IMG/VR virus record: IMGVR_UViG_3300037585_005926
Location: 1-64,000 of that record
Source of the DNA: an uncultured virus (IMG/VR IMGVR_UViG_3300037585_005926)
Taxonomy: Duplodnaviria > Heunggongvirae > Uroviricota > Caudoviricetes
DNA: 64,000 bases
Reading direction: 5' to 3' (one strand)
Under the pieces are notes generated by a model. That model ran no database searches and had not been told where the DNA came from. It saw nothing but the letters and a program-made list of their open reading frames with translations. Below, in pieces: positions 10,143 to 63,889 of the stretch. Position 1 is the stretch's first letter. Each line of letters begins with the position of its first letter. Both the position numbers and the translations under genes were made by a program.

Positions 10143-12510
10143 TGAAGAAATCCTGTTAAAAACAGCAAAATTGCTAGAAAATTTGGATATTTCCAGCAAA
10201 AAACCCGAAAAAGTGCTCCGAGAAGTCACCGAAGACGAGATGAGAGTACTAGAAGACGTCTTGGAGGACTTAGATCCAGCTAATTTGCCCCTAAATGACC
10301 TTTTCAGTGGTAAAATGCGCGCTGTTATACCATTTCCAACCACTGATCCGTCTACAGAGCTTGGAAAGTTCGCAAAATTTTTCAGATCTCAAGAATATGA
10401 CGTAGATTGGGAGAAAGGCATGGTGTATGCCGAGCGAGATTTACGCACAGCCAGCGATATCTTCAATACTTTGGGTGATCAGCCCGTCAAGAAGAAAACC
10501 AAGAAAATTCAGATGAAAATTGGCAAGCTTTTCTCTAAATTGACTGATTTAAGTCGAAGAAGAGACGTATTATACCAAAAAGTCTATGACCACTTGGCTG
10601 CTATTGATTATAAAGGACCAAATGGCAGACCAGCCAATCGTCCATACGATGCTACAAAGCAATTGCGCAAAGCTGCACTCGATGAGAAGGAATTAGAGAA
10701 TTTCGACAGGATTACTGGCCAAATTTACTTATATATCGTAAATCCGGGCGTTGCAGGGCCTGCAGGTTACGACTTAACCGATTTAGCCACTCAATACGGC
10801 GAATATTGGAAAAAGAACGCCGGATATATCAAAAAAGAGATAAATAACATCGATAATGACAAATTTTCCATTATTATCACTCGACATCCAATAGATGTGC
10901 TCAGAATGAGCGATTTTGACGAGATTACCTCTTGTCACACTCCACCTAGCCGTGCAAGTGCCTATCAATCGTACTATAAGTGCGCTGTAGCCGAGGCTCA
11001 AGGGCATGGGGCGGTTGCCTATGTGGTGGAGACAGAAGAACTGCTTACAAACACAAATACGGGCAATATAGACAGTGCAGAGCAAGAAATCCAAGAAGGT
11101 GAGATATTTGCCGACAATGCAAGATATGGAGGCGCTGGATTTGATATTGAGCCAGTTTCTAGAATTCGTGTCCGTCATGTTAGATATTATGAAGGTGATG
11201 AGCCTCCAAAGCGTTGGGACGATGGACAAGATGTTGGGATGCCGGAGAAAAAAATCTATGGTGCTGATATTCCCGGCTTAACTAATCAAGTTACTGATTG
11301 GGCAAGATCAAACCAAGAAGAAGTCATCCAAAACATGCCTAAAGAGGGTGATAAGATTGATTTAAGTAAATTTATAATTTTTGGTGGTTCTTATGAAGAT
11401 ACTGCTGACGCATCAGGCAGAGCTATTTTGATGAAGCAGTTGCTGGGTGACAAAAATATTGAATTTGCTGGTGCAATGCGCCAGAACAAAGACACCGAAA
11501 ATAATCTAGATGCAAATTTAATCGGTGATATAAAAGCAATGATGGAAGGCGAATGTGAAGATGTGACAAATTATTGGATGGAAAGATATGCTCAGACATT
11601 TCTTGATTATGAAGTGCTCGAAGACGGCGCCGATAGCGTTTATATTAAACCCACTGCTCAATTTGTTGCTAGATGGCCAATTGATGAGTGGATAAGACTG
11701 CCGAGCAATGCAGAAGAAGTTGTGTGGAACTCTGTTGATGAATTAAATGAACGAAACGGCTATGGTGATATATTTGTGCCTTCGAAACACGATACTCCCA
11801 CAATCCGCAGGATCCGCGAAGAAATACACTTATCTATTCCTATTAACTTTGAGCATCCTGAGATTTATGGTGGGAAGTACATGGTCATGTCATCCGAACT
11901 TAATGACGCCGGGCAAAATATTGATACTAAGATCGATGATGCTCGTGATGCTTGGGAAGAGATTCTTACACAGTACTTCAAGCGAGAAGGACAGATGGAG
12001 GGTGGTGCCTATATTAAACTAGCCAGAGAAATTGAAGATGGTGAGGTCTCATCTTACGAGTGGGATGTTGAGACTGACGGCGATTATGACGACTCATACG
12101 AATCTACCGCACGATACTCTCACTATTACGATCCAGAAGATTTAGGATTAGGTATGGAAGTGCTTATGAAGATTCTTGATTCTCGCGACTTTAAAATTGA
12201 ATTGAGAAAACAACTCTTAGATGCGCCAAGAAAAGAAGAGAACACACAATATTACTTACAAATGAACGCCACAACAGTGGAACACGCTGGAGAGGCTAAA
12301 TATACCGCTATATTCTCGATTAACGCCGATGAACCCAATATTATGGTTGGGTTATTCAAAGAGCTTGTAGAGGGCGAGATGGACGACGAAGACAACCTTA
12401 ACGTGGTGTTCAACAGAGTGTTGGCTCAGTTTGTCAATTCTCGCCAACCATCGCATATGCAAACAAACGAAAGTATAGTTAAAACTTGGAAAGGATTTTT
12501 AGGAAGATGA
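10132..12510 (+). CDS. large acidic hypothetical protein, probably virion-associated
   Basis: ~790-aa ORF; IIITRHPIDVLRMSDF..SCH conserved-looking core; C-terminal NESIVKTWKGFL. Confidence 0.75.
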   Translation: MINDEEILLKTAKLLENLDISSKKPEKVLREVTEDEMRVLEDVLEDLDPANLPLNDLFSGKMRAVIPFPTTDPSTELGKFAKFFRSQEYDVDWEKGMVYAERDLRTASDIFNTLGDQPVKKKTKKIQMKIGKLFSKLTDLSRRRDVLYQKVYDHLAAIDYKGPNGRPANRPYDATKQLRKAALDEKELENFDRITGQIYLYIVNPGVAGPAGYDLTDLATQYGEYWKKNAGYIKKEINNIDNDKFSIIITRHPIDVLRMSDFDEITSCHTPPSRASAYQSYYKCAVAEAQGHGAVAYVVETEELLTNTNTGNIDSAEQEIQEGEIFADNARYGGAGFDIEPVSRIRVRHVRYYEGDEPPKRWDDGQDVGMPEKKIYGADIPGLTNQVTDWARSNQEEVIQNMPKEGDKIDLSKFIIFGGSYEDTADASGRAILMKQLLGDKNIEFAGAMRQNKDTENNLDANLIGDIKAMMEGECEDVTNYWMERYAQTFLDYEVLEDGADSVYIKPTAQFVARWPIDEWIRLPSNAEEVVWNSVDELNERNGYGDIFVPSKHDTPTIRRIREEIHLSIPINFEHPEIYGGKYMVMSSELNDAGQNIDTKIDDARDAWEEILTQYFKREGQMEGGAYIKLAREIEDGEVSSYEWDVETDGDYDDSYESTARYSHYYDPEDLGLGMEVLMKILDSRDFKIELRKQLLDAPRKEENTQYYLQMNATTVEHAGEAKYTAIFSINADEPNIMVGLFKELVEGEMDDEDNLNVVFNRVLAQFVNSRQPSHMQTNESIVKTWKGFLGR

Positions 12511-12749
12511 GTAAATACCTACAAGATCCTGATTACCTTTTTAGTCTTCTTACGATTCTTGTTAAAAAAAATGGTGGCCAGATAACATTAACTGAAGAAG
12601 AAATAGCGAATGTCTCCAAGGGAGATTTAATCGGCATGTACTTCGAACCCAAAACAGGTAGTGTCATTCTTAAAGAAGTGGACCCCCAAGATATGCTTCG
12701 GGCCAAGACGCTTATTGGTGATAAAACTGACGAGACCTACGATAACTAA
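12507..12749 (+). CDS. hypothetical protein
   Basis: ATGA overlap with the upstream gene, AGGA upstream. Confidence 0.65.
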   Translation: MSKYLQDPDYLFSLLTILVKKNGGQITLTEEEIANVSKGDLIGMYFEPKTGSVILKEVDPQDMLRAKTLIGDKTDETYDN

Positions 12750-12777
12750 ACTACTTATTTGATGAGGAATATATAAA

Positions 12778-13023
12778 ATGAAGTATATAATAATCTTTCT
12801 ACTCTCCGGTGTTGCATATGCCGACGATAAAAAAGAAGAGCCCAAAGTTGTCTACAAACAACGAACAGAAATCGATTTTGAAGGTGTTGAAATTGATGGT
12901 GAGTTAGTAAAACCACAAGGATCCTTGCTTTTAGAGCGAAAACATGCTAAATTTAATCCTATGATTAAGCTACGCACGGACTTTGACGATGAAATGGACA
13001 AATCGGTGAATGAAATAAAATGA
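12778..13023 (+). CDS. CglF/GltF-like adventurous gliding motility protein homologue
   Basis: Signal peptide, then KVVYKQRTEIDFEGVEIDGELVKPQG...FNPMIKLRTDFDDEMDKS, matching from memory the IDF..IEGEL.KP.G...F..LI..R..F..E...S pattern of myxobacterial CglF. Confidence 0.7.
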   Translation: MKYIIIFLLSGVAYADDKKEEPKVVYKQRTEIDFEGVEIDGELVKPQGSLLLERKHAKFNPMIKLRTDFDDEMDKSVNEIK

Positions 13024-13046
13024 AACTCCTACTTGAAAATTGGCGA
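13019..13046 (+). repeat. 28-bp direct repeat, left copy
   Basis: AATGAAACTCCTACTTGAAAATTGGCGA, identical at 14371-14398. Confidence 0.95.
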
Positions 13047-13055
13047 TGGATGTAA

Positions 13056-14372
13056 ATGTTAACTATAGAACAGATAAGGCGCAAACAAGAAAAGTTGAAA
13101 AGGAAGTGGGCAAAAGAAGCCGAACTAGAAGATGAGAAAGAGGCCCAGCGTGTTGCTAAATTAGAAGCTGAACTTCGCGAGCAAGAAGAAATCACAACAC
13201 AGAAAAGACTTCTCACGGAGCAGCGCGAAGACGAACGCCTTCGTCAGAAACACATCCAAAGAAAACAAAAAATAGCAGACCAAAAATGGGATAAACAGTT
13301 TGATGTCTTGATGACTCAGATAAAGAATCGGCGCCAAAAGGATGATGAGCTTGAAGAAATAAGAAATATAATCCAAAATCGTGAACCCACCCTTCAGGAG
13401 CTTGATTGGGAGAGTTGGCTGGCTGTTCCCCTTAATCTAAGGCTCGCTGAATTAGATTTTGAGCGGGCGATGGAAATGTTTAAGCGCGATAACCTGATTG
13501 TAAAACGGCGTAGGGGAACGGGCGGAAGGAGAAAATCTACACGTGACGTAAATTATGTCTTAACATTTACAGGCGATACGGCTGCTGGTGCAAGATTAGA
13601 TTATGTATCAACTACGTTCAATCCTGATTCATATGATGGGGAAGGAACTGGACTTAATCGTGGATTTACTGTTTCTTATTGGGTTAAGCCACTTGAAACA
13701 ACTGGTGATGTCTTTTTTGCTTTTGGTAAAAGGTCTCAAAGTGATGGTAGATTTGAATTTGGTATTAAAAATCAAAATAAGATTAAGGTTGGTATTGGTG
13801 CAGCAGATAAAGATAACAATGATGGGTCTATCGGATTTGAAGTAGGTACTTGGTATAATTTTGTAGTAACATATGGTGGCGATGATCATGGAACCATCGG
13901 TGGTGATAGACAAGTAAGGGTATATTTAAATGGAACTGAAATATTAAAAACTGGAGCTTCTGGTGGTGGCATGGGGACAGCCAATTGGATTCCGGGTAAA
14001 CAGAATTGTGCTGTTGGCTGTGATGATCCCGTTAATGCTGCAAGCTATCTTTACTTCGGAGGTCGTAGTGCTTATCAAGATCTTGATAATCCATATAATC
14101 AGGGTTGGGCTTGTAGTCTTAGTGAAGTAGCTATCTATAATACAGAAATTGATGAAGATGGTACTTTTGCTAACGAAGTATATAATGGTGGAACTAATTA
14201 CGACCATAGTGACAATAGTGGTCTTGTAGGATATTGGAAATTTAATGAAGGCAAAGGAAATACTGTAAAAGATTATGGTCCTTATGGAAAAGACGGAACA
14301 CTAACTTCAGATGCAGACGGAGGATCAGGTATTCCAACTTGGGAAAAACGACCAAAAGGATACGGACAATAA
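13056..14372 (+). CDS. coiled-coil plus LamG/concanavalin-A-like domain protein
   Basis: Charged helical N-terminal half; FTVSYWVK, WYNFVVTY, VYLNG, LSEVAIYN, GLVGYWKFNEG motifs. Confidence 0.85.
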   Translation: MLTIEQIRRKQEKLKRKWAKEAELEDEKEAQRVAKLEAELREQEEITTQKRLLTEQREDERLRQKHIQRKQKIADQKWDKQFDVLMTQIKNRRQKDDELEEIRNIIQNREPTLQELDWESWLAVPLNLRLAELDFERAMEMFKRDNLIVKRRRGTGGRRKSTRDVNYVLTFTGDTAAGARLDYVSTTFNPDSYDGEGTGLNRGFTVSYWVKPLETTGDVFFAFGKRSQSDGRFEFGIKNQNKIKVGIGAADKDNNDGSIGFEVGTWYNFVVTYGGDDHGTIGGDRQVRVYLNGTEILKTGASGGGMGTANWIPGKQNCAVGCDDPVNAASYLYFGGRSAYQDLDNPYNQGWACSLSEVAIYNTEIDEDGTFANEVYNGGTNYDHSDNSGLVGYWKFNEGKGNTVKDYGPYGKDGTLTSDADGGSGIPTWEKRPKGYGQ

Positions 14373-21794: not shown

Positions 21795-22030
21795 TGTGGA
21801 GAGTATACAAGTGGAATGGTCATTATATCATGGGTGACTTAATCAGTAAGCACTCATCTGAGTCTGCGGCCATGCGTGCTGCAACCAAGAATATTAATTT
21901 TGCAAGTACAGAAAAACACAAAAGCAAAACAGAAATTACCATATGGCTTGATAATGAAAACCACACTCCAGTTGGGGTTATAATAAAGAAACAAAGAAAA
22001 AAAGGGGATGCCACGGCTTCGACAGAGTAA
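21794..22030 (+). CDS. hypothetical protein
   Basis: 78 aa; 3' end overlaps the tmRNA 5' end. Confidence 0.6.
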   Translation: MWRVYKWNGHYIMGDLISKHSSESAAMRAATKNINFASTEKHKSKTEITIWLDNENHTPVGVIIKKQRKKGDATASTE

Positions 22031-24633: not shown

Positions 24634-25170
24634 TTGGACCCTGCAATATCAAATACTAAAACTTTGAAGTTGGATTCTTCTTATAGGCCTCTTGAGATTG
24701 TAGAGGCTACGGAGGCTCTGGTATTGTGCTTAATAGGTAAGGCCTATGCAATAGAGAATCACACTCAAGAGATAAGGTCGATATCGGAAACGTTTAGGCT
24801 ACCAGCCGTTATAGTGCTGACAAGATATGTTAAATTTAAGTTTAAAACAATGACTTGTAAACGCAATAACATAATTTGGAGAGACAACAACAAATGTCAA
24901 TACTGTGCTAAAGATTTCGAGAACGACTCTTTAACCATTGACCATGTGATACCGAAAAGTAAGGGTGGTAAGGATAGCTGGCTCAACTTAGTTGCAGCGT
25001 GTAAAAAATGTAATCAGAAAAAAGGTGCGAACACTCCAACACAGGCCGGGATGAAGCTAATCAGAGAACCGTTTAAACCTCAAACTAACGTTCTTCGGAC
25101 CATCGGCAAAGAAGAAATAAGCAATCTTTGGACAGATTACTTGTGGGATAAAAAGAATGATACGCAATGA
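24634..25170 (+). CDS. HNH endonuclease
   Basis: RD..KCQYC, LTIDHVIPKSKGG, NLVAACKKCNQKKG. Confidence 0.92.
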   Translation: MDPAISNTKTLKLDSSYRPLEIVEATEALVLCLIGKAYAIENHTQEIRSISETFRLPAVIVLTRYVKFKFKTMTCKRNNIIWRDNNKCQYCAKDFENDSLTIDHVIPKSKGGKDSWLNLVAACKKCNQKKGANTPTQAGMKLIREPFKPQTNVLRTIGKEEISNLWTDYLWDKKNDTQ

Positions 25171-25415: not shown

Positions 25416-25492
25416 TGCCCCTTAGCTCAGTTGGTTAGAGCATCTGACTGTTAATCAGAGGGTCCGCAGTTCAAGTCTGCGAGGGGCAGCCA
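25416..25492 (+). tRNA. tRNA-Asn(GTT)
   Basis: TGCCCCT/AGGGGCA acceptor, TCTGA-CTGTTAA-TCAGA anticodon arm, CGCAG-TTCAAGT-CTGCG, encoded CCA. Confidence 0.95.
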
Positions 25493-25517
25493 TCTTGACT
25501 AACTAAAAGGAGAAAAA

Positions 25518-25991
25518 ATGTCAATTATTCAAAAACTACAATCACTCAACCTATCACCAGATACGGTAGTAAATCTAAGCTATAGCGAGGGCACAGACGT
25601 TTTCGTTCATAATGAAACGGAAGTGGAAGACGCCTTGTCAGAGACAGATGTGGTTAGCACTTTTGCTGACCTAATCGCAACCCGCGGCCTGCGTGTCTCA
25701 CAACAGTATGGGGGCAGCATTATTGAGCAACTTCGCGCTGACGATCTTCTTGATAACTACGAACGCGACGGTGATTTTGCAACTTTCCTGGCGGATGTAC
25801 TTGAAGAAAACTTCTATGAGTATGATTTCATTGAATCTTCAACTGAAAAGTACGACCATAAAAGAGGCTTTTGCACCTTAAGTGCTAACGTAAAAGTTCC
25901 ACTTTCAGACATTATTGAACACAGCCCCTATTTGGGAAGCTGGGAAGTTTCAGTAAAGACCGACAACGGGACTTTGACCATAGAGGCTTAG
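25518..25991 (+). CDS. acidic hypothetical protein
   Basis: AAGGAG upstream, 157 aa. Confidence 0.75.
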   Translation: MSIIQKLQSLNLSPDTVVNLSYSEGTDVFVHNETEVEDALSETDVVSTFADLIATRGLRVSQQYGGSIIEQLRADDLLDNYERDGDFATFLADVLEENFYEYDFIESSTEKYDHKRGFCTLSANVKVPLSDIIEHSPYLGSWEVSVKTDNGTLTIEA

Positions 25992-26040
25992 AGATAAGCA
26001 AAAGGTTGGCGGCTTGCCTATATGTTGAAAGCCGCACTAA

Positions 26041-26116
26041 TGGGGTGTAGTTCAATTGGCAGAACGCCGGACTGTTAATCCGGAGGTTATTGGTTCAAAT
26101 CCAGTCGCCCCAGCCA
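26041..26116 (+). tRNA. tRNA-Asn(GTT), second divergent copy
   Basis: TGGGGTG/CGCCCCA, CCGGA-CTGTTAA-TCCGG, ATTGG-TTCAAAT-CCAGT, CCA. Confidence 0.93.
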
Positions 26117-26119
26117 TTT

Positions 26120-26194
<75 letters not shown>

Positions 26195-53785: not shown

Positions 53786-54104
53786 AGTAACATTATCTAT
53801 TATACTTTTTATATCGTTGGTGTTTAGCACCGGCGTAGTATTATATGCGAGAGCGGCCATTGTCAAGCTTCTAAGCATCTCTGAGGAGATGCATGATCTT
53901 AAAGAAATGGTTGATGCTCTTGCTGCACACCTTGAAGGTGTATATGAGCTTGAAATGTTCTATGGTGACGAAACTCTCGGTGCCCTAATGGAACATGCAA
54001 GGTCCTTCAATAAACAGTTGGAGACCTTCGAATATATTTATGGACTAATAGAAGAAGATGCAGAAGATACAGAAACCCCCGCCGACGAAGAAGAAACGTC
54101 GTAA
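53772..54104 (+). CDS. membrane-anchored hypothetical protein
   Basis: N-terminal hydrophobic helix, acidic tail. Confidence 0.65.
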   Translation: MTSLEVTLSIILFISLVFSTGVVLYARAAIVKLLSISEEMHDLKEMVDALAAHLEGVYELEMFYGDETLGALMEHARSFNKQLETFEYIYGLIEEDAEDTETPADEEETS

Positions 54105-54771
54105 GAAGAATCACTACTTTACAAAAGATCATGAGAATGCCATTATTAGGTATTCTAATACTGAATGTATAAGAGAGCGAACAGATTTATATGTCAATTG
54201 GATTGGCCCAGCTTTTAACGAAATGGTTGATAAGATTGTCTTTACTTATAAATTTACAAATTTGCCAAACATCGACTCGCTAAGAGACGAGTGTAAAATT
54301 TGGCTGATGACAATATTGGACAAGTACGATCCCTCTAAGGGGTCGAAAGCTTTTTCTTACTTTTCAGTTATAACTAAAAACTGGTTTATTCACAAAGTAA
54401 AGAAGCAACAGCGCAAGAATAAAACAGAGGTAAACTTTGACAATCTTGCCAAGAATTATGAAGAGCAATATCTGTCAACAAATGAATCTTATGTAACCGA
54501 ACGGGAAGAAAACGAGTTTTGGAATCATTTTTATAAAGAACTAAAATCGTGGGACGCTTCTCAGATGAAAGAAAATGATTTGAAAGTGTATCAGGCGATA
54601 GTCGTTCTTTTCGATTCAAAAGAAGATATACAAATTTTTAATAAAAAAGCTATTTATCTGTACCTGCGTGAAATCACTGGCTTAAACACTAAGCAAATAG
54701 TGAATTCACTAAAGAAGTTTAAGAAAAAGTATTACTTCTTTACACAGAACTGGAACAATGGTGCATTATGA
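54058..54771 (+). CDS. phage late-transcription sigma factor (T4 gp55-like)
   Basis: NHYFTK, DSLRDEC, LDKYDPSKGSKAFSYFSVITKNWFI (sigma region 2 only). Confidence 0.75.
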   Translation: MQKIQKPPPTKKKRRKKNHYFTKDHENAIIRYSNTECIRERTDLYVNWIGPAFNEMVDKIVFTYKFTNLPNIDSLRDECKIWLMTILDKYDPSKGSKAFSYFSVITKNWFIHKVKKQQRKNKTEVNFDNLAKNYEEQYLSTNESYVTEREENEFWNHFYKELKSWDASQMKENDLKVYQAIVVLFDSKEDIQIFNKKAIYLYLREITGLNTKQIVNSLKKFKKKYYFFTQNWNNGAL

Positions 54772-57244: not shown

Positions 57245-60200
57245 ATGGCTAAAAGTCGTGTAGATAAAACAATGGTTCCGATACCGGAAAGAATGCCCAA
57301 AGATGGCACCTCTCCGTATCTAAAATTTCAAGATAAGAACGGAGATGGCTTACCGGATGTCTGTGACGTTTCGGTATCTCCTGGAAAAGTATGCTTGGAC
57401 TGTGTCCCCAACCCGTACGCGATCAACAGTAACTGGCGTGACCGCAGCCAGACGGATCCTATACTAAACGAGAAGAATTGTAAATACCAAATCACCTTTG
57501 TGACACCAGAAACCACAACTGGATACACAGAAGGTATGACTGACGAGGAAGCTGACGAGGCTCTGAAAGAAAAGTTCGAGAAGTACGGCCGCGATGCGAT
57601 TCAAATGATGCTAGAAGAGTTTCAAAAAGATGATTCTTTTGCAACTGTAGAGAACGTGCTCAAGGTAACAGAGTTTACTGACTTTCATTTAGAACCACGG
57701 CAAGGTTCACGATTGAAGCTTCTCTATTCAGTGGACTTCTCAACAGTGTTTGGGCTCCCCGAGATACAACTTGATGACGGCGAGCCAGAAGAAGTAGAAA
57801 AAGACGATATAAAGGTCAAGTTTACTACGGCCGAAATGACGCCCATGAATATCAGAGTCAGAAAGGGACTCAATTTATACAACAGATATTTGAAAGTGTT
57901 TACGGGAACGCAAGGCGGCCATCTAAAGTTTAAAAAAGACGACAGGTATTTTGACCTTTCGGATTACGGAGATGATGGTCTTTTTGGGACATCAGCGCTT
58001 GGAACACTGTACAGCGACTTAGACTCATGGCTTAGCAGCCGCGGCTTCACGATGTCAGTAAGTTTTTGGGACCTGTTCAGTTCAGACGAGCTTATGACTA
58101 AGCTGGTAATGGTCTTTGATGGCAATTACAACATTAAAAAAATGCAAGTATATACTGAGGGCTGCGGTGATCGGCCGGCTGCTACATATAAAAAGAATCG
58201 ATTAAGATCTTTACGCCGGCGAGGTAGCTGGAAAGACAAGACCGCAGTGGCATATTTCGCAAGAATGCAAGAAATGGACAGAGGCTTCAAGGCCCGACGC
58301 CCCAAGCCATGGATTGAGTTTCTCGAAGAGTTTACTTACCCTGAAATATATGCGTGGCAGCCTGAAGGCGATATAGGAGAACCTACAACATCAGCTTGTA
58401 TCCAGAACAATCTTGAGAATGAGTTTAAAGACTTGGGTCAGGATATCTTTGACGAAGTTTTCTCTATTGGAGATGCTGTTGCAAAGGCCTTCCATGATAA
58501 TCTGTGTCGCCTGGATCCAGACGAAGTAAAGAGAGATCTTGGAGAAATGGGCCTAAACCAGGGCGCCCCAGGCCTCTCGAATCCTCATAATATGCAAAGT
58601 AATGCGCGCATGCAGGCCTATTACAGGATTGACGAAAAAGATCCAATTTTTGTAAACATGTGCAAGAGAGCCATAATGTATAAGGGCTTCGGCGGAATGG
58701 GTATGGGCTCTCTAGATCAATTATACAAACATGGCCTCGGTCCTCTTAAATATTGTGGTCTGTATGATCTTATGTTCGAAGCGATTGAGTGCTTATTTAA
58801 AGGATTGACTTTGGCTGAAGCACTCGGCCGAATAATATTAACTGCTCTCAAGGCAATGGGAGTTCGAGATTTTGGAGTACTGTTTGTTGGCTTACCTCCT
58901 GAAAAACGCGCTGAACTCGATGCACTTGTCAAAAAGAATTTAAAATCTGGAAAAACGTTTGAAGCACTCGATGATAAATCGCCACGCGCTGAAGATGCAC
59001 CATTTTTTGGTGAAGTGAACTTTGTAAAACCGTGGGAAGACGAAGCATTTGTTGAGCACCAAGAAAAAACGAGTAGGCCCGACGCATTCGGTGCCCAGGT
59101 GCCTTCCAAGAATAAAGATATTAGCAATTACGACCCCACTGTACAGCGCCGCACTCTGGGCCAGCAACTAGCCGGCCCGTCTGCACAACAGAAGTCACAG
59201 CTAGATTCCCAGAAAGTGTTTGATGCATACATCCTCGCGCTAATCGAAGTGTATGAGGATAACTACCTAGCACTCCTCGACCATATGAGCGGCTTCCCGG
59301 GAGCGCAGTTGATTGCCGCTGTCATCGCACTGCTTGATTGTCCGCAGCCACCTTTATTTAATCCAGGTATTATGGACTTTGTCAAGAGTTTAGGCATGCC
59401 CTTCTGCAGAAATCAAGTTGATATTACTTCGATTAGAATGGAGAATCCATTTAGAATGTGGCCAAAGCTAGCTGATATTCTTGGGCTTCTTTTCTTCTTG
59501 CTAAAACAGGCTTTCTGGGCTCTTCTGGCAAAAATTCTTCTAGCAATTCTTGGCAAGATTTGTGAGATTATTGGTAACGCAATTTGCAAGGCTCTGGAAA
59601 CCGTAGGGGAAGTTGTAGCTGCGCTGCCCAGCGCTATCGCCGGCCGCACAAACTTGTTTGATGTCATTAGGGACACGATCTGTGGCCCCACTGTTAGCAA
59701 CGAACAAGTGGAGAACACAGTTGTTGAGATCGTGAACCAACTGGGTGTTGGTGGTGCTGCGCTAGCAGACCGCGATAGGGCGATTAGCTTCTTTGCAGAT
59801 TCAATGAACGCTATGACCAGACAGGAGGCGTTTGAAGCTATGCTCGATGGCCCATCCGCCATGGCGCTGGATATCATAGATGGCATTGTGGAGCACGATT
59901 ACCCAGAGTATCGCGAAGCTCTGCCAAACAAGTCATCGATATCTAAGTTTTACAAAAACGTAGGCCTATTGATGCCGGCAGAGTCAAGAAACGAGCTAAG
60001 GGATATATTGGAAGCCTTCCCAGAAGAACTAAATGCGCCAGTTAATCCTTCAATGTGTTCGACGCCAGAAGAGTTAGAATTATTCAATGAGAAGCGTTGT
60101 TCGTTATTGGAAGGACGCATGTCTCCGGCACAGTGTGAGGCACTCAACATGAGCGCCAAAGCGCAATTGTTAGAAGACCTAGACGATATTGGAAAGGTCA

Positions 60201-63200
60201 TACATGAGGGGATACCAAACATAGTAGAAGCCAACATGCCACCGTTCTTTTCTGATCCCGGCTGTGACAATGGCCTGATGCCGATTGAGCCAGAGCCTGC
60301 AAAAATAGTTGCAACGACTGCCCTTAAGGGAGAGATGGATAAAATCAAGCTTGCATATACTGAAGATATGCTTGGTGAAGGTGCATTCTTTTATCAACAA
60401 AAGAACTGGGGCCTCCTTAACATGGTACTCTCGGATACTTACGGAAATCCTTGGACTGTTCACCAAGACAAGGTCGCGTCCGGCGCACGCTGGGTCGACT
60501 ACTACGGAGAATTCTCTGAAAACGAGTTGACACCAGCGCCATCGGTCCCCGCTAATCCGTTTATGTTACCAGTATGGATGGTGCAACTCATAGTATGGAT
60601 TACAATACTACCGCTAGAAGTAGTAATCAACTTTATGATTGGACTGTTTGCCGGTGAAGCCCGCGGCGCATATCCGCAATATGTTGCTGGCTGGCTCCGC
60701 GGACAGTTTTTGCCCGAAACCACACCATATCAAACCCAAGGAACTTCCACAAGTGTGTCCAAACCAAACGGCACCTACATCGCAGATTTGCGGGGCCCCA
60801 TGGGAGAAATTGGGTTTAACAGCACAAACGACAAAAGAAAGACAAAGCGGTGGAGCAAATCTTTCAGTGATTTAGGATTTGTTGGATTTCTGTGGGATAC
60901 AGATGTTGAATTGGTGGACATGCCAAACCATGGCTATAATGCTGCCCACAGAGTGGACTTCGAAAATGACAGAGTAGTAATTACTCGTAAAGCCAGAAAA
61001 GATACAGCAGATGTCACTCTTAAATTTAAAGATAACGCTAAGGGCTACCGCGCTCGCGGCAGGTCTGACGAGGACTGGGCCTACGGCTTCAACCTCCGCG
61101 CATACTACTCAGATTTAATCAAGAAAGACGGCGCGTATGTAAACCGTCCGGACGATAATACCAGAGTGTCAGTCATTTCCATGGTTAATATGGCTGCAGA
61201 AACAGCCGCTTCGGCACTTGAGTTGGTTCCAGAAGAGGATCGCCCGGGGATGTTTGAAGATGAGCCCGCCATAATTAAAGATAGAAGATATGAGTTTCTT
61301 TCTGTAGACAACGGCCTTGACAACATAGACCTTATAAACTTTCCCGAGTTAGCAAAAACATTTGAGGGATACAAAAGTTATTCACCACCCGTTGCCGCTT
61401 TGCATGATTTAACCAATGGCGCCTTGTCAATTGATGCAGCAAGGGGTTTATATAACCGGGTTAATAAAGGCTTCTACAACACGTTTGCTGGAGAAATAGG
61501 AAACAATGACAAAGGTTGGCTCTTTGGCGCTGTTGCTGATCCGCTCACACGCTCAGACTTTGATTTAGGGGTCATATTGGACGCAGACTTGGCACGCGAT
61601 AACGATGACTACGGCGTAGGCGACTTTGTATCAGTGTATAAACTAAAAGTAAGAGATGACGACGGCGATCTTAACTTCGTCAGCAGCGAGGACGGAATTC
61701 TAGGAATCAGCAGAAATGAATATGATAATCTTGATAATCCTGAGAACACCAGAGTGTTCTATCTGGATCCTGGCAAGTATGGGGGAAGCTACATGTTCCC
61801 GCCTGTTTATACAAAGCCACTGCCTAACTCAGGCTGGACTGGCATGGTTGACCTGCTGTTCCCAGAAAGAAGCCCGTGTGACCCCAAGACTGACGGTATT
61901 GCTAACTTCTCGCAAATCAGTCAAATGATTGACACATACTATCCAAGAATCCCCGAAGACAAGAGGTTGCTGGGCGATGAAGACTGTATCTTAGAGGTAC
62001 CCTTTAATCGAATTTTAACCCGTCCATCAAAGGCTGCAATCCGCGGACTGGTCATGGCCGGCATCAAGACTTTTGCCAGTACTGGATTTGTAAAATCGAT
62101 AGCAACGTTTACAAAGTTTGCTCCTGACTTTGAGCACAACTACAGTAAGATATATGCAGGGTACATTGTGGAAGCTATGAAAGAGGCCATGATGTCAACA
62201 GGAGGCAATTTCCTCAATCCGTTTAACGATACAGAGTTCTGGTATGCCTATCTTGAACAGGCAGTGCAGATGTACTCAGATCGTCTAGACGATGAACTAG
62301 ACGAAACCTTTACGGCCAGCAACTGTCCTCAATCGGTCCAAGAAGCATTAGAAAAAATTAATAATATGCAATCAGGCTATAAGTACCCATTTGACTTCGA
62401 TGACTACAACAGCGAAGATTATGGCACCTTTGAATCCATGAAGAGCTTCAGAGAGAGTAAGAATCTAGAAGCAGTAAAGAAAGTTGAAAGCGAAGCCAAG
62501 ATTGTAATGCAAGAGTTGGTGTTAGAACAGCTTAAACTTCTTTCAGAGGTATTTACCAAGAATTGCTCCAGAGCAGGTTTCGATCCAGCAATCACAAATA
62601 TGAATTATTATTTCTTCAACAATTTTTGTAATGGTGGCGAAGGCCTACAGCTTCACGGCGAGTTCGTAGAGAAGCCTGCCGCGGGCTCCCTGCCATCTGA
62701 GGGAACCAATCTATATACGACCGGTGACATGTTGGCTCTTCCGAGCGGCATACCATATGTTGGAGAATATCATGTGCATAAAGATGTTGATGGTACCAGT
62801 ATCTACATGGCCGGCGCTGAACATTCTGAATTAGAAGAGCATGACAGGCTCATTCCCTTTGCCAATGTCATGGAAGTGTTTACAAAACAGAAAATAGATG
62901 GAATGGTGTCTGAAAGTCTATTGGGAGACATTGGCTCAAGCATCGGCGAAAAAACTTTCTATCTGAAAAAATATGTAAGCGTTGCCGGCGCCTCCATGAC
63001 GTCTGCAGCAGCAGAGGCGCAGATTCGCGGTAAAGGAAGCGGAAACTTATCGGATTATTACCCGGGCACACTAGAGCTTGTGCAGCCGCCTATACGCGGT
63101 AATGGTCGTGACCATGTGGGGACTGCCCCAGCGATTGGAATAACTGGTAATATTGGTGTCCAATATGTTTTAGAATTTGGTATTGCCGCCGGCGATTCTG

Positions 63201-63889
63201 TTGGTTCTCCAATCCCAATTGCAGAAGCAAGAATCGATGCCCTAGATCTGCCAGTGTCACAGTTTAAGGGGATTTCACCAAATAGCAAACTCTTACTCTG
63301 CTTGCTTAACAATCTTCAAGATGATACTAACTTCAGGCTCACGCTTGATTATATCTTCCCAATGAAGAAGGCGCTCTCAATGCTGGCGATTTATAACGAC
63401 CTAGGGCTCTTGCCCTCTGTGGGCGAATTAACAGTCGAAAAGGGAGATATGACTTCATCTTCCGAAAAAGAAAAACCTGGCGGCAGAATAACTGGCGCGG
63501 CCCTTGAGACTGTGACTTCGGCTGACGGTACTGAACACCAGAAGCTATCACTTAACTCAGCCTGGACAGCCGGCTGGGCATCTGAAGATGATAGAAACGG
63601 GTTCCTTAGTAGCTTCGGCTATCTAGATTGGGATGAATGGGATAAGCAGCCGCTTAGAAACACCACAAGAACAATCAAAGATATCTTCAAGATCTATTAT
63701 CGCGATCGTAAGTTTAATGTCCTAGAATCCTCGGGCCCCTCAATAGTGGATCAATTTACTGCCGGCATTGTAGAAAGATTTAGATTCAACCCAGCAATGA
63801 AGATTCTGCCTTGGTTCCAAAAATCTCAAGTCCGCGGAAATATATTTAACGCAGATGGCGCCGAGTGTTCCAAGAAAAATTCAAGTTGA
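57245..63889 (+). CDS. 2214-aa putative virion structural protein
   Basis: Very long ORF in the baseplate cluster; DKNGDGLPD Ca-binding-like motif; two hydrophobic segments. Confidence 0.7.
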   Translation: MAKSRVDKTMVPIPERMPKDGTSPYLKFQDKNGDGLPDVCDVSVSPGKVCLDCVPNPYAINSNWRDRSQTDPILNEKNCKYQITFVTPETTTGYTEGMTDEEADEALKEKFEKYGRDAIQMMLEEFQKDDSFATVENVLKVTEFTDFHLEPRQGSRLKLLYSVDFSTVFGLPEIQLDDGEPEEVEKDDIKVKFTTAEMTPMNIRVRKGLNLYNRYLKVFTGTQGGHLKFKKDDRYFDLSDYGDDGLFGTSALGTLYSDLDSWLSSRGFTMSVSFWDLFSSDELMTKLVMVFDGNYNIKKMQVYTEGCGDRPAATYKKNRLRSLRRRGSWKDKTAVAYFARMQEMDRGFKARRPKPWIEFLEEFTYPEIYAWQPEGDIGEPTTSACIQNNLENEFKDLGQDIFDEVFSIGDAVAKAFHDNLCRLDPDEVKRDLGEMGLNQGAPGLSNPHNMQSNARMQAYYRIDEKDPIFVNMCKRAIMYKGFGGMGMGSLDQLYKHGLGPLKYCGLYDLMFEAIECLFKGLTLAEALGRIILTALKAMGVRDFGVLFVGLPPEKRAELDALVKKNLKSGKTFEALDDKSPRAEDAPFFGEVNFVKPWEDEAFVEHQEKTSRPDAFGAQVPSKNKDISNYDPTVQRRTLGQQLAGPSAQQKSQLDSQKVFDAYILALIEVYEDNYLALLDHMSGFPGAQLIAAVIALLDCPQPPLFNPGIMDFVKSLGMPFCRNQVDITSIRMENPFRMWPKLADILGLLFFLLKQAFWALLAKILLAILGKICEIIGNAICKALETVGEVVAALPSAIAGRTNLFDVIRDTICGPTVSNEQVENTVVEIVNQLGVGGAALADRDRAISFFADSMNAMTRQEAFEAMLDGPSAMALDIIDGIVEHDYPEYREALPNKSSISKFYKNVGLLMPAESRNELRDILEAFPEELNAPVNPSMCSTPEELELFNEKRCSLLEGRMSPAQCEALNMSAKAQLLEDLDDIGKVIHEGIPNIVEANMPPFFSDPGCDNGLMPIEPEPAKIVATTALKGEMDKIKLAYTEDMLGEGAFFYQQKNWGLLNMVLSDTYGNPWTVHQDKVASGARWVDYYGEFSENELTPAPSVPANPFMLPVWMVQLIVWITILPLEVVINFMIGLFAGEARGAYPQYVAGWLRGQFLPETTPYQTQGTSTSVSKPNGTYIADLRGPMGEIGFNSTNDKRKTKRWSKSFSDLGFVGFLWDTDVELVDMPNHGYNAAHRVDFENDRVVITRKARKDTADVTLKFKDNAKGYRARGRSDEDWAYGFNLRAYYSDLIKKDGAYVNRPDDNTRVSVISMVNMAAETAASALELVPEEDRPGMFEDEPAIIKDRRYEFLSVDNGLDNIDLINFPELAKTFEGYKSYSPPVAALHDLTNGALSIDAARGLYNRVNKGFYNTFAGEIGNNDKGWLFGAVADPLTRSDFDLGVILDADLARDNDDYGVGDFVSVYKLKVRDDDGDLNFVSSEDGILGISRNEYDNLDNPENTRVFYLDPGKYGGSYMFPPVYTKPLPNSGWTGMVDLLFPERSPCDPKTDGIANFSQISQMIDTYYPRIPEDKRLLGDEDCILEVPFNRILTRPSKAAIRGLVMAGIKTFASTGFVKSIATFTKFAPDFEHNYSKIYAGYIVEAMKEAMMSTGGNFLNPFNDTEFWYAYLEQAVQMYSDRLDDELDETFTASNCPQSVQEALEKINNMQSGYKYPFDFDDYNSEDYGTFESMKSFRESKNLEAVKKVESEAKIVMQELVLEQLKLLSEVFTKNCSRAGFDPAITNMNYYFFNNFCNGGEGLQLHGEFVEKPAAGSLPSEGTNLYTTGDMLALPSGIPYVGEYHVHKDVDGTSIYMAGAEHSELEEHDRLIPFANVMEVFTKQKIDGMVSESLLGDIGSSIGEKTFYLKKYVSVAGASMTSAAAEAQIRGKGSGNLSDYYPGTLELVQPPIRGNGRDHVGTAPAIGITGNIGVQYVLEFGIAAGDSVGSPIPIAEARIDALDLPVSQFKGISPNSKLLLCLLNNLQDDTNFRLTLDYIFPMKKALSMLAIYNDLGLLPSVGELTVEKGDMTSSSEKEKPGGRITGAALETVTSADGTEHQKLSLNSAWTAGWASEDDRNGFLSSFGYLDWDEWDKQPLRNTTRTIKDIFKIYYRDRKFNVLESSGPSIVDQFTAGIVERFRFNPAMKILPWFQKSQVRGNIFNADGAECSKKNSS

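Follow-up and report, generated by a model that had tools for sequence, protein, structure and literature searches.

A GltF/CglF-like protein encoded in a variable slot of T4-like marine phages

The stretch of DNA analysed here, called the window throughout, is the first 64 kb of the IMG/VR virus record IMGVR_UViG_3300037585_005926, which is linear, 77,655 bp long and 42% complete according to CheckV. Its plus strand carries, at 12778..13023, a gene of 81 codons plus a stop, taken from the list of open reading frames, whose product a preliminary description had likened to the gliding-motility protein CglF/GltF. Both the reading frame and the protein sequence quoted in that description are real, and the ribosome-binding site that it reported is present as the Shine-Dalgarno sequence GAGGA at 12764..12768 (+), 9 nt 5' of the ATG. 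An 87-aa ORF lies upstream, with its stop codon at 12747-12749. The viral homologues have 34 distinct upstream regions, most of which contain a GGAGG- or GAGGA-type site at comparable spacing. Residues 1-15 (12778..12822, +) form a predicted type I signal peptide, in which K2 is followed by a hydrophobic stretch (residues 3-12) and by A13-Y14-A15, after which cleavage would expose D16. A13 and A15 are kept in at least 91% of the phage homologues and of the cellular homologues alike. Read from its sequence, the protein falls within the size and export class of GltF/CglF (about 80-90 aa, type I signal peptide). Myxococcus xanthus GltF, which is CglF (MXAN_4868), has 89 aa and is listed as signal-peptide positive in Table 1 of PMC3169522, and the text on CglF in PMC3325183 gives it a type I signal sequence.

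The late-type motif that had been reported upstream of the gene did not survive inspection. The sole candidate, TATATAAA at 12770-12777, sits between the ribosome-binding site and the ATG, and because of this position it is unable to act as the promoter of the gltF-like gene; it is not conserved across the 34 distinct regions upstream of the viral homologues. TATAAATA, the T4 late promoter consensus, occurs three times in the window against 4.5 expected, with no occurrence near the gltF-like gene. Since this consensus is not enriched, the lineage may use a different late motif. Scans for sigma-70 promoters and for terminators gave results at chance level. Two oligo-dT marine RNA runs contain small shares (0.12 and 0.05), and their contigs cover parts of an 800-aa gene and, from a relative, about 100 bases of the 3' end of the gltF-like gene; as DNA carry-over is a possible source, we do not take these matches as expression.

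Nearly all long ORFs of the window lie on the same strand, and those with PHROG matches encode PhoH, an HNH endonuclease, an exonuclease, a baseplate hub, a baseplate wedge and a gp55-like late sigma factor (54058-54771; a weak match to phrog_234, E 2.4e-5). The gltF-like gene shares a viral genome with virion and late-transcription genes, as in T4-like myoviruses. ARAGORN found three tRNAs and a tmRNA in the window. Near-identical DNA is present in 22 public runs from 16 studies, and the related complete phage genomes measure 187-203 kb, one of them with direct terminal repeats. The cultured-phage collection gave no match, either by megablast of 10 kb or by tblastn of the 81-aa protein. The window thus belongs to a T4-like marine phage with a genome of roughly 190 kb.

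Several other features of this phage were recorded in passing. A small tRNA cluster (Asn-GTT twice and Gly-GCC; 25416-26194) closely follows an HNH endonuclease gene (24634-25170). A block of sugar and glycan genes extends over about 21 kb (31702-53081) and comprises two glycosyltransferases, a GtrB-like protein, four nucleotide-sugar epimerase-like proteins, two aminotransferases, a FabG-like reductase and a sialyltransferase-like match; this gene content suggests that the phage remodels surface glycans. Giant ORFs encode 2214 aa at 57245-63889 of the window and at least 3316 aa at 3707-13654 of L002, where the end of the contig is reached. Neither has a PHROG match; they flank the baseplate wedge gene, with the baseplate hub gene upstream, and they may be fibre or host-recognition proteins.

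The proposed identity of the small protein was examined with NF033764, the NCBIfam profile for CglF (adventurous gliding motility). Residues 13-80 align with positions 15-88 of the 88 in the profile at 53.9 bits (E 1.4e-14), a match far beyond chance, which spans the full length of the protein and takes in both a strand block and a C-terminal helix. NF033764 is an equivalog with a curated cut-off of 90 bits, which the phage protein does not reach. A profile search had been put forward as the check on the original claim; its outcome is a significant full-length match with a score below the equivalog cut-off, so that homology is upheld and equivalence is not. The cut-off appears to be tuned to near relatives of Myxococcus. 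Positional orthologues in cellular glt clusters likewise stay below it (55.5-59.9 bits), and of 150 listed family representatives the 75 that were scanned include none at 90 bits or more, the maximum being 72.7, although 61 of the 65 short and 8 of the 10 long ones scanned do match the profile. Nor does the phage gene lie between gltE and gltG as in a glt cluster. Because both the curated score and the gene context fail, we file the 81-aa protein as a phage-borne homologue and not as an equivalog; as far as sequence can tell, it is a true homologue of CglF/GltF. Searches of Pfam and PHROGs gave no match for it, and the best hit among PDB sequences was not significant (E 0.14).

The family to which this protein belongs is large. 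In a collection clustered at 90%, 996 proteins match at E <=0.001, and each of the 120 listed is at least 78% identical; after clustering at 50%, 686 representatives match. Several marine sources are represented among the near homologues. The short members are built to a common plan, namely a signal peptide, an acidic linker and the pattern (V)YK.(R/K)TEIDFEGV.V.GELVKPQG..L.(D/E)RK.A.FNP(L/M)I.LR.DF..EM..SV.E.K.

Cellular relatives were collected by a degenerate-pattern scan with one genome per species; it found 159, of which the 80 best loci were retained. Neighbouring genes were then sought by tblastn with the genes around the homologue of locus L053. At least one flanking glt-like gene is present in 79 of these best 80 of 159 loci, the exception (L091) being a 4.4-kb contig, and a gltG-like gene is present in 74. 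The closest relatives are up to 77% identical and have a gltE-like gene on one side and a gltG-like gene on the other, within gltC-D-E-F-G-H clusters. Loci L053 and L050 encode, in this order, a GltC-like protein, a TPR protein of 945-1039 aa in the gltD position, a TPR protein of 497-514 aa in the gltE position, the GltF-like protein, a GltG-like protein and a CglE/gltH-like protein. The protein in the gltE position of L050 has a lipoprotein-type N-terminus, and the GltG-like proteins of both loci have an FHA domain, a membrane segment and an AgmX/PglI TonB-like C-terminus that matches tonB_Cterm. In genome G033 two OMP_myx_plus barrels stand 5' of gltC, so that the run is legible as A-B-C-D-E-F-G-H, and a TolQ-like gene is found still farther upstream.

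Because of this gene order, and of the description of gltF and nfsA-H given in parts of PMC3169522, we classify the cellular genes, on sequence and synteny, as positional gltF orthologues of a Glt/Nfs-type machine that may serve gliding, coat assembly or another process. The account of M. xanthus in PMC3169522 has GltF required for gliding and recruited to focal adhesions: gltF is needed for the localisation of GltD in clusters, and GltF is present at the focal adhesion clusters. In the survey given there, gltF was found in Myxococcales and Bdellovibrionales only. The same source describes nfsA-H, which acts in sporulation of M. xanthus, as a contiguous set and as the closest paralogues of Glt. 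The marine clusters, with two barrels and then gltC, D, E, F, G and H in a single run, resemble nfsA-H in gene order, a likeness that leaves them either Glt-type or Nfs-type. By the A-to-H naming, GltF would have a counterpart in NfsF.

Many of the genomes G008-G032, which are kin of the candidate host discussed below, carry a second, more distant GltF-like gene, 36-49% identical to the phage protein, which may belong to another Glt/Nfs-type cluster. The naming of the cellular records as 'Myxococcota' follows depositor labels. Among the best 80 of 159 loci, 22 are labelled Myxococcota or Myxococcales, 16 Deltaproteobacteria, one Oligoflexia and 19 enterobacterial, the remainder having generic or other labels. 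The 19 enterobacterial MAG records (Enterobacterales, Enterobacteriaceae or Klebsiella pneumoniae; L047, L057, L058, L060, L061 and 14 further loci) have a GC content of 0.57-0.70 and a myxobacterial-type glt gene order. They are probably mislabelled deposits, because neither their GC content nor their gene order fits an enterobacterium. A search for GltJ in the five genomes closest to the phage protein gave partial and weak matches only; the NCBIfam profile for Tgl matched TPR proteins everywhere, and that for TraA matched in none of the five genomes, nor in the control.

The published models of the machine offer a framework for reading the phage protein. The AlphaFold models presented in PMC11761067 show GltF as a largely disordered bridge, whose strand lies side by side and in parallel with one strand of GltG's TonB-like C-terminal domain, which touches GltD en route, and whose C-terminal helix (residues 133-147) inserts into a crevice of GltC. 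The discussion of the models in that paper treats this bridge role as structure prediction only, with biochemical support absent. GltF itself is placed in the periplasm or in association with the inner membrane by statements in PMC4488436 and PMC3169522. With such a location, and as a periplasmic bridge in the models of PMC11761067, the phage protein is unlikely to mask an outer-membrane receptor, as the preliminary description had proposed.

Two blocks of the phage protein may correspond to the two ends of this bridge. The strand block QRTEIDFEGVEIDGELVKP (residues 28-46; 12859..12915, +) is the putative counterpart of the GltF strand that pairs with GltG; when counted from the C-terminus in the 147-residue numbering used in PMC11761067, residues 94-111 of M. 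xanthus GltF would map to about residues 28-45 here. Nine of its 19 columns are at least 90% conserved in the phage and cellular sets alike. The C-terminal block TDFDDEMDKSVNEIK (residues 67-81; 12976..13020, +) is the candidate counterpart of the helix in the GltC crevice, and F69, M73 and K81 within it are conserved in both sets. An AlphaFold2 monomer of the phage protein is extended, with helices at 4-8 and 70-80 only (mean pLDDT 76.5, pTM 0.23), and in this extended form with a C-terminal helix it resembles the description of GltF in PMC11761067. Compared with M. xanthus GltF, the phage protein is alike in being small and exported (81 aa against 89 aa in Table 1 of PMC3169522), in conserving the strand block and the C-terminal helix, and in having its nearest cellular relatives in the gltF position; it differs in being encoded by a phage, in standing alone (none of 44 viral loci has another glt gene) and in scoring below the equivalog cut-off.

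The predicted pairing of strands recalls the TonB box and its partner, the C-terminal domain of TonB, in that the models of PMC11761067 would have a GltF strand added alongside a TonB-like strand of GltG, and the cellular GltG-like proteins do match tonB_Cterm and the AgmX/PglI C-terminal domain. Unlike the plug of an outer-membrane receptor, which bears the TonB box, GltF is a free periplasmic protein, and the best PDB match has already been seen to be insignificant. Natural fusions bear on the same contact. In the long cellular proteins P0147 and P0208 a GltF-like segment stands directly before a TonB-like C-terminal domain, which matches NF033768 at 33.4 and 31.8 bits (cut-off 40 bits) and whose C-terminus aligns with that of GltG; in the joint alignment of fusions and GltG, the GltF segment is wrongly paired with the first helix of the domain from GltG. 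This fusion and the adjacency of gltF and gltG (74 of the best 80 of 159 cellular loci) support a contact between GltF and GltG independently of the published models. P0147, P0208, P0213 and P0217 are all 636-780 aa long, and each has a VIT/VWA-type region (TIGR03788, below cut-off) in addition to its GltF-like segment and a C-terminal region.

The existence of such long proteins raises the question of whether the phage protein acts on a target outside the Glt/Nfs machine, such as a different protein that ends in a TonB-like domain or a protein of the phage itself, the GltF-like module being a general strand-plus-helix adaptor. The module is indeed found inside long multidomain proteins, of which 8 of the 10 representatives scanned match NF033764 weakly and four have the VWA-type region (TIGR03788, below cut-off), and many genomes hold the distant second copies at 36-49% identity. 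The phage copies are, however, nearest to the copy in the glt cluster, with 70-77% identity against 36-49% for the second copies, and the flanking phage genes include no Glt-related or TonB-like families. We consider another target unlikely.

Relatives of the gene were found in 44 viral loci, with 46-93% identity and on contigs of up to 316 kb. At least one neighbouring gene of the window is common to 38 of these loci, and at least three to 35. The usual order in the phages is a NUDIX gene, genes for proteins of 318 aa, 800 aa and 87 aa, the gltF-like gene, and genes for proteins of 206 aa, 108 aa, 115 aa and 289 aa. The segment between the conserved 800-aa and 206-aa genes (12511..14338, +) is a variable slot, which in the window contains the 87-aa ORF, the gltF-like gene and a LamG-domain gene directly downstream; the last of these is matched in just one of the 44 gltF-bearing viral loci. 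When viral contigs were searched with the 800-aa protein, 79 loci were kept, and the slot was fully contained in 46. The gltF-like gene occupies this slot in 16 of the 46 related loci and is missing from it in the other 30. Five larger relatives without the gene in the slot gave no match over the whole record either, and three of them are 100% complete according to CheckV. On a FastTree phylogeny of the 800-aa protein (47 rows), the presence of gltF requires at least nine changes, against a mean of 14 in shuffled data, and one of 500 shuffles was that low. The gltF-like gene is accessory and dispensable for the lineage. A virome contig (run X7, depth 105) joins position 12493 to position 13020 through 13 other letters, the shorter side being 27 letters long, and is a weak indication of a relative that lacks both the 87-aa ORF and the gltF-like gene.

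A tree of gltF (124 rows, with L027 left out as cut by a contig end) unites 41 of the 44 viral rows, that of the window among them, in a group with an unstarred SH-aLRT of 83 that adjoins the cellular locus L091, and L044 and the pair L045/L046 stand apart on long branches. The phylogeny against cellular homologues that had been suggested earlier thus unites most of the phage genes, and gltF is too short to place their sister group. For dN/dS we used the 41 phage rows without L027 and L044-L046, which represent 30 distinct core sequences and 435 pairs. The median was 0.073 and the maximum 0.262 in the 164 usable pairs, the other 271 being saturated at synonymous sites. Where the gltF-like gene is present, it is under strong purifying selection. 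The phage loci have a GC content of 0.36-0.45, the cellular loci 0.48-0.71 and the closest cellular loci 0.52-0.61. The phage-like GC of the locus and the purifying selection together indicate that the capture is old and that the gene is maintained.

These results also bear on whether the gene is only a passenger or an artefact, that is, a functionless fragment recently taken from a host, a contig of cellular origin wrongly classed as viral, or an ORF that arose by chance. Such an explanation could appeal to the linear and fragmentary record, with its CheckV completeness of 42%, and to the many relatives that lack the gene. Against it stand the selection and GC content just described, the 44 viral loci on contigs of up to 316 kb, the baseplate and late-sigma genes on the same record, and the viral-metagenome label carried by 11 of the 22 runs in which the stretch occurs; moreover, the phage neighbours of the gene are found in none of the best 80 of 159 cellular loci. 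We regard this explanation as scarcely credible. That the gene is phage-encoded, as first described, is borne out by the IMG/VR virus record, by the baseplate wedge, baseplate hub and gp55-like genes, and by the near-identical DNA in viral metagenome runs.

The host of the phage can be approached from two independent directions, which agree. Identity to the phage protein peaks at 73-77% in five kindred genomes of 3.5-4.2 Mb (G001-G004 and G007); the remaining 25 matching kin of G003 reach 66% at most, and 30 of the 31 genomes have a match overall. The second line is the tmRNA gene of the phage at 22004..22339 (+), identified by ARAGORN and by Rfam RF00023 (114.9 bits), which encodes the tag ANNNNHFESVRLAA. 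Of the five closest genomes, three yielded a tmRNA, with the tags ANNNNHFAAAAVA, ANNNNHFAATAVA and ANNNDNFAAAAVA, and the start of the phage tag, ANNNNHF, is common to two of these three (ANNNNHFAAAAVA and ANNNNHFAATAVA). Four more distant kin have the tags ANNNSHFALAA, ANDNRAFAVAA, ANNNAHFALAA and ANNNKHFALAA, and a fifth is without an ARAGORN call. Five complete phage relatives, three without gltF and two with it, all have a tmRNA, with a tag that starts ANNNN(H/Y)F or ANNNLHF; as all five of the relatives checked carry it, the tmRNA is shared regardless of the gltF state. By gltF identity and tmRNA tag, the specificity of the tag being judged within the group only, the host is probably a member of the Myxococcota. 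The GC content of the phage lies 10-20 points below that of the closest cellular loci, which weakens the assignment. The host had originally been named as a gliding predatory bacterium; Myxococcota is probable, and gliding and predation do not follow from clusters whose order is nfsA-H-like.

What the protein may do in such a host can be judged from a column-by-column comparison of 30 distinct phage with 78 distinct cellular sequences. Conservation reaches at least 90% in the phage and the cellular set alike at 23 columns, which are distributed over the strand block, a middle block and the helix. At five columns the phage sequences have residues of their own, P22, S49, E53, M62 and D70, where the cellular residue is at least 80% conserved; several of these changes are conservative (D/E, L/M, N/D and A/S). 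A possible role for the protein, which we favour with roughly even confidence, is that of a host-derived copy of gltF that docks in the Glt/Nfs-type machine of the host and sustains or supplements the host's own GltF. This reading builds on the observed homology, export signal, cellular context, phage distribution, purifying selection and host links; the docking, and the direction in which it would act, we infer. A protein that substitutes for or supplements GltF is the most likely choice, since the conservation of the two contact blocks resembles that in host proteins.

The same homology and export would apply equally to a dominant-negative linker, which would occupy the sites on GltC, on GltG or on both, and would leave the machine uncoupled or frozen. 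Movement might then be stopped, assembly prevented, or a TonB-like energised route of entry of other phages shut, which would amount to superinfection exclusion. The five phage-specific substitutions at sites that are so well conserved in cells could be the marks of such an inhibitor, and the patchy, accessory occurrence of the gene, with at least nine gains or losses on the 800-aa tree and absence from three complete relatives, is like that of many exclusion genes. On the other hand, a one-sided blocker would be free to lose one of its contact blocks, and both are retained despite saturation of the synonymous sites; several of the substitutions, as noted, are conservative; and PADLOC recognised no exclusion or defence family in any of four proteins (the 81-aa protein and three neighbours). 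The retained blocks lean against a one-sided decoy, and their conservation, as read from the alignment, would fit a working substitute or a competitive inhibitor alike. A dominant-negative role seems to us doubtful but worth entertaining.

Under the favoured reading, in which the phage protein sustains or supplements host GltF, it would be exported through Sec and its signal peptide would be cut after A15. The mature chain of 66 residues, largely unfolded, would dock into the host machine as modelled for native GltF. The partner of its strand block would be the TonB-like C-terminal domain of GltG, the middle block would pass along GltD, and the C-terminal helix would enter the crevice of GltC. 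The coupling of the motor to the outer membrane could in this way be kept working, or be set by the phage, during the failure of host gene expression.

Cyanophages carry psbA, which encodes D1, as a phage-borne copy of a labile subunit of a host machine. The two cases are alike in that a single host-derived subunit is found in marine T4-like phages, is under purifying selection and is thought to sustain a host machine; they are unlike in that the target here would be a structural envelope machine and not metabolism, and in that the sustaining role of the GltF-like protein is our proposal.

The favoured reading can be carried further, to a phage that steers the surface conveyor of its host. The Nfs machine spreads the spore coat. 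By supplying its own GltF, the phage might keep an Agl/Glt- or Nfs-type motor coupled after shut-off and use it to spread a phage glycan coat, made by the sugar island of about 21 kb, that would block further adsorption. We think this extension distinctly improbable. If it were true, this would be the first known virus to carry, and to steer, a structural component of the focal-adhesion or gliding machinery of bacteria.

Full-text searches of the literature found no paper on a phage-encoded GltF or CglF, and the main text of a 2026 preprint on viruses of myxobacteria (10.64898/2026.09.14.751636) mentions neither name. New in this work are the host link through the tmRNA tag, the patchy distribution, with the gene missing from some complete genomes, the comparison of phage with cellular proteins column by column, and the argument from fusions. 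An exported and well-preserved phage GltF is a pointer to marine myxobacterial hosts, and it suggests a phage that places a part of its own in the host machine. If this is true, it would be, as far as the literature searched shows, the first virus with a structural part of a Glt/Nfs-type envelope machine, and the surface motility or coat assembly of bacteria would be subject to phage action from inside the cell. The marine Myxococcota would be identified as host for a widespread lineage of uncultured ocean phages with genomes of roughly 190 kb, and the diverged but strongly selected phage variant would provide a natural probe of the model in which GltF bridges GltC and GltG.
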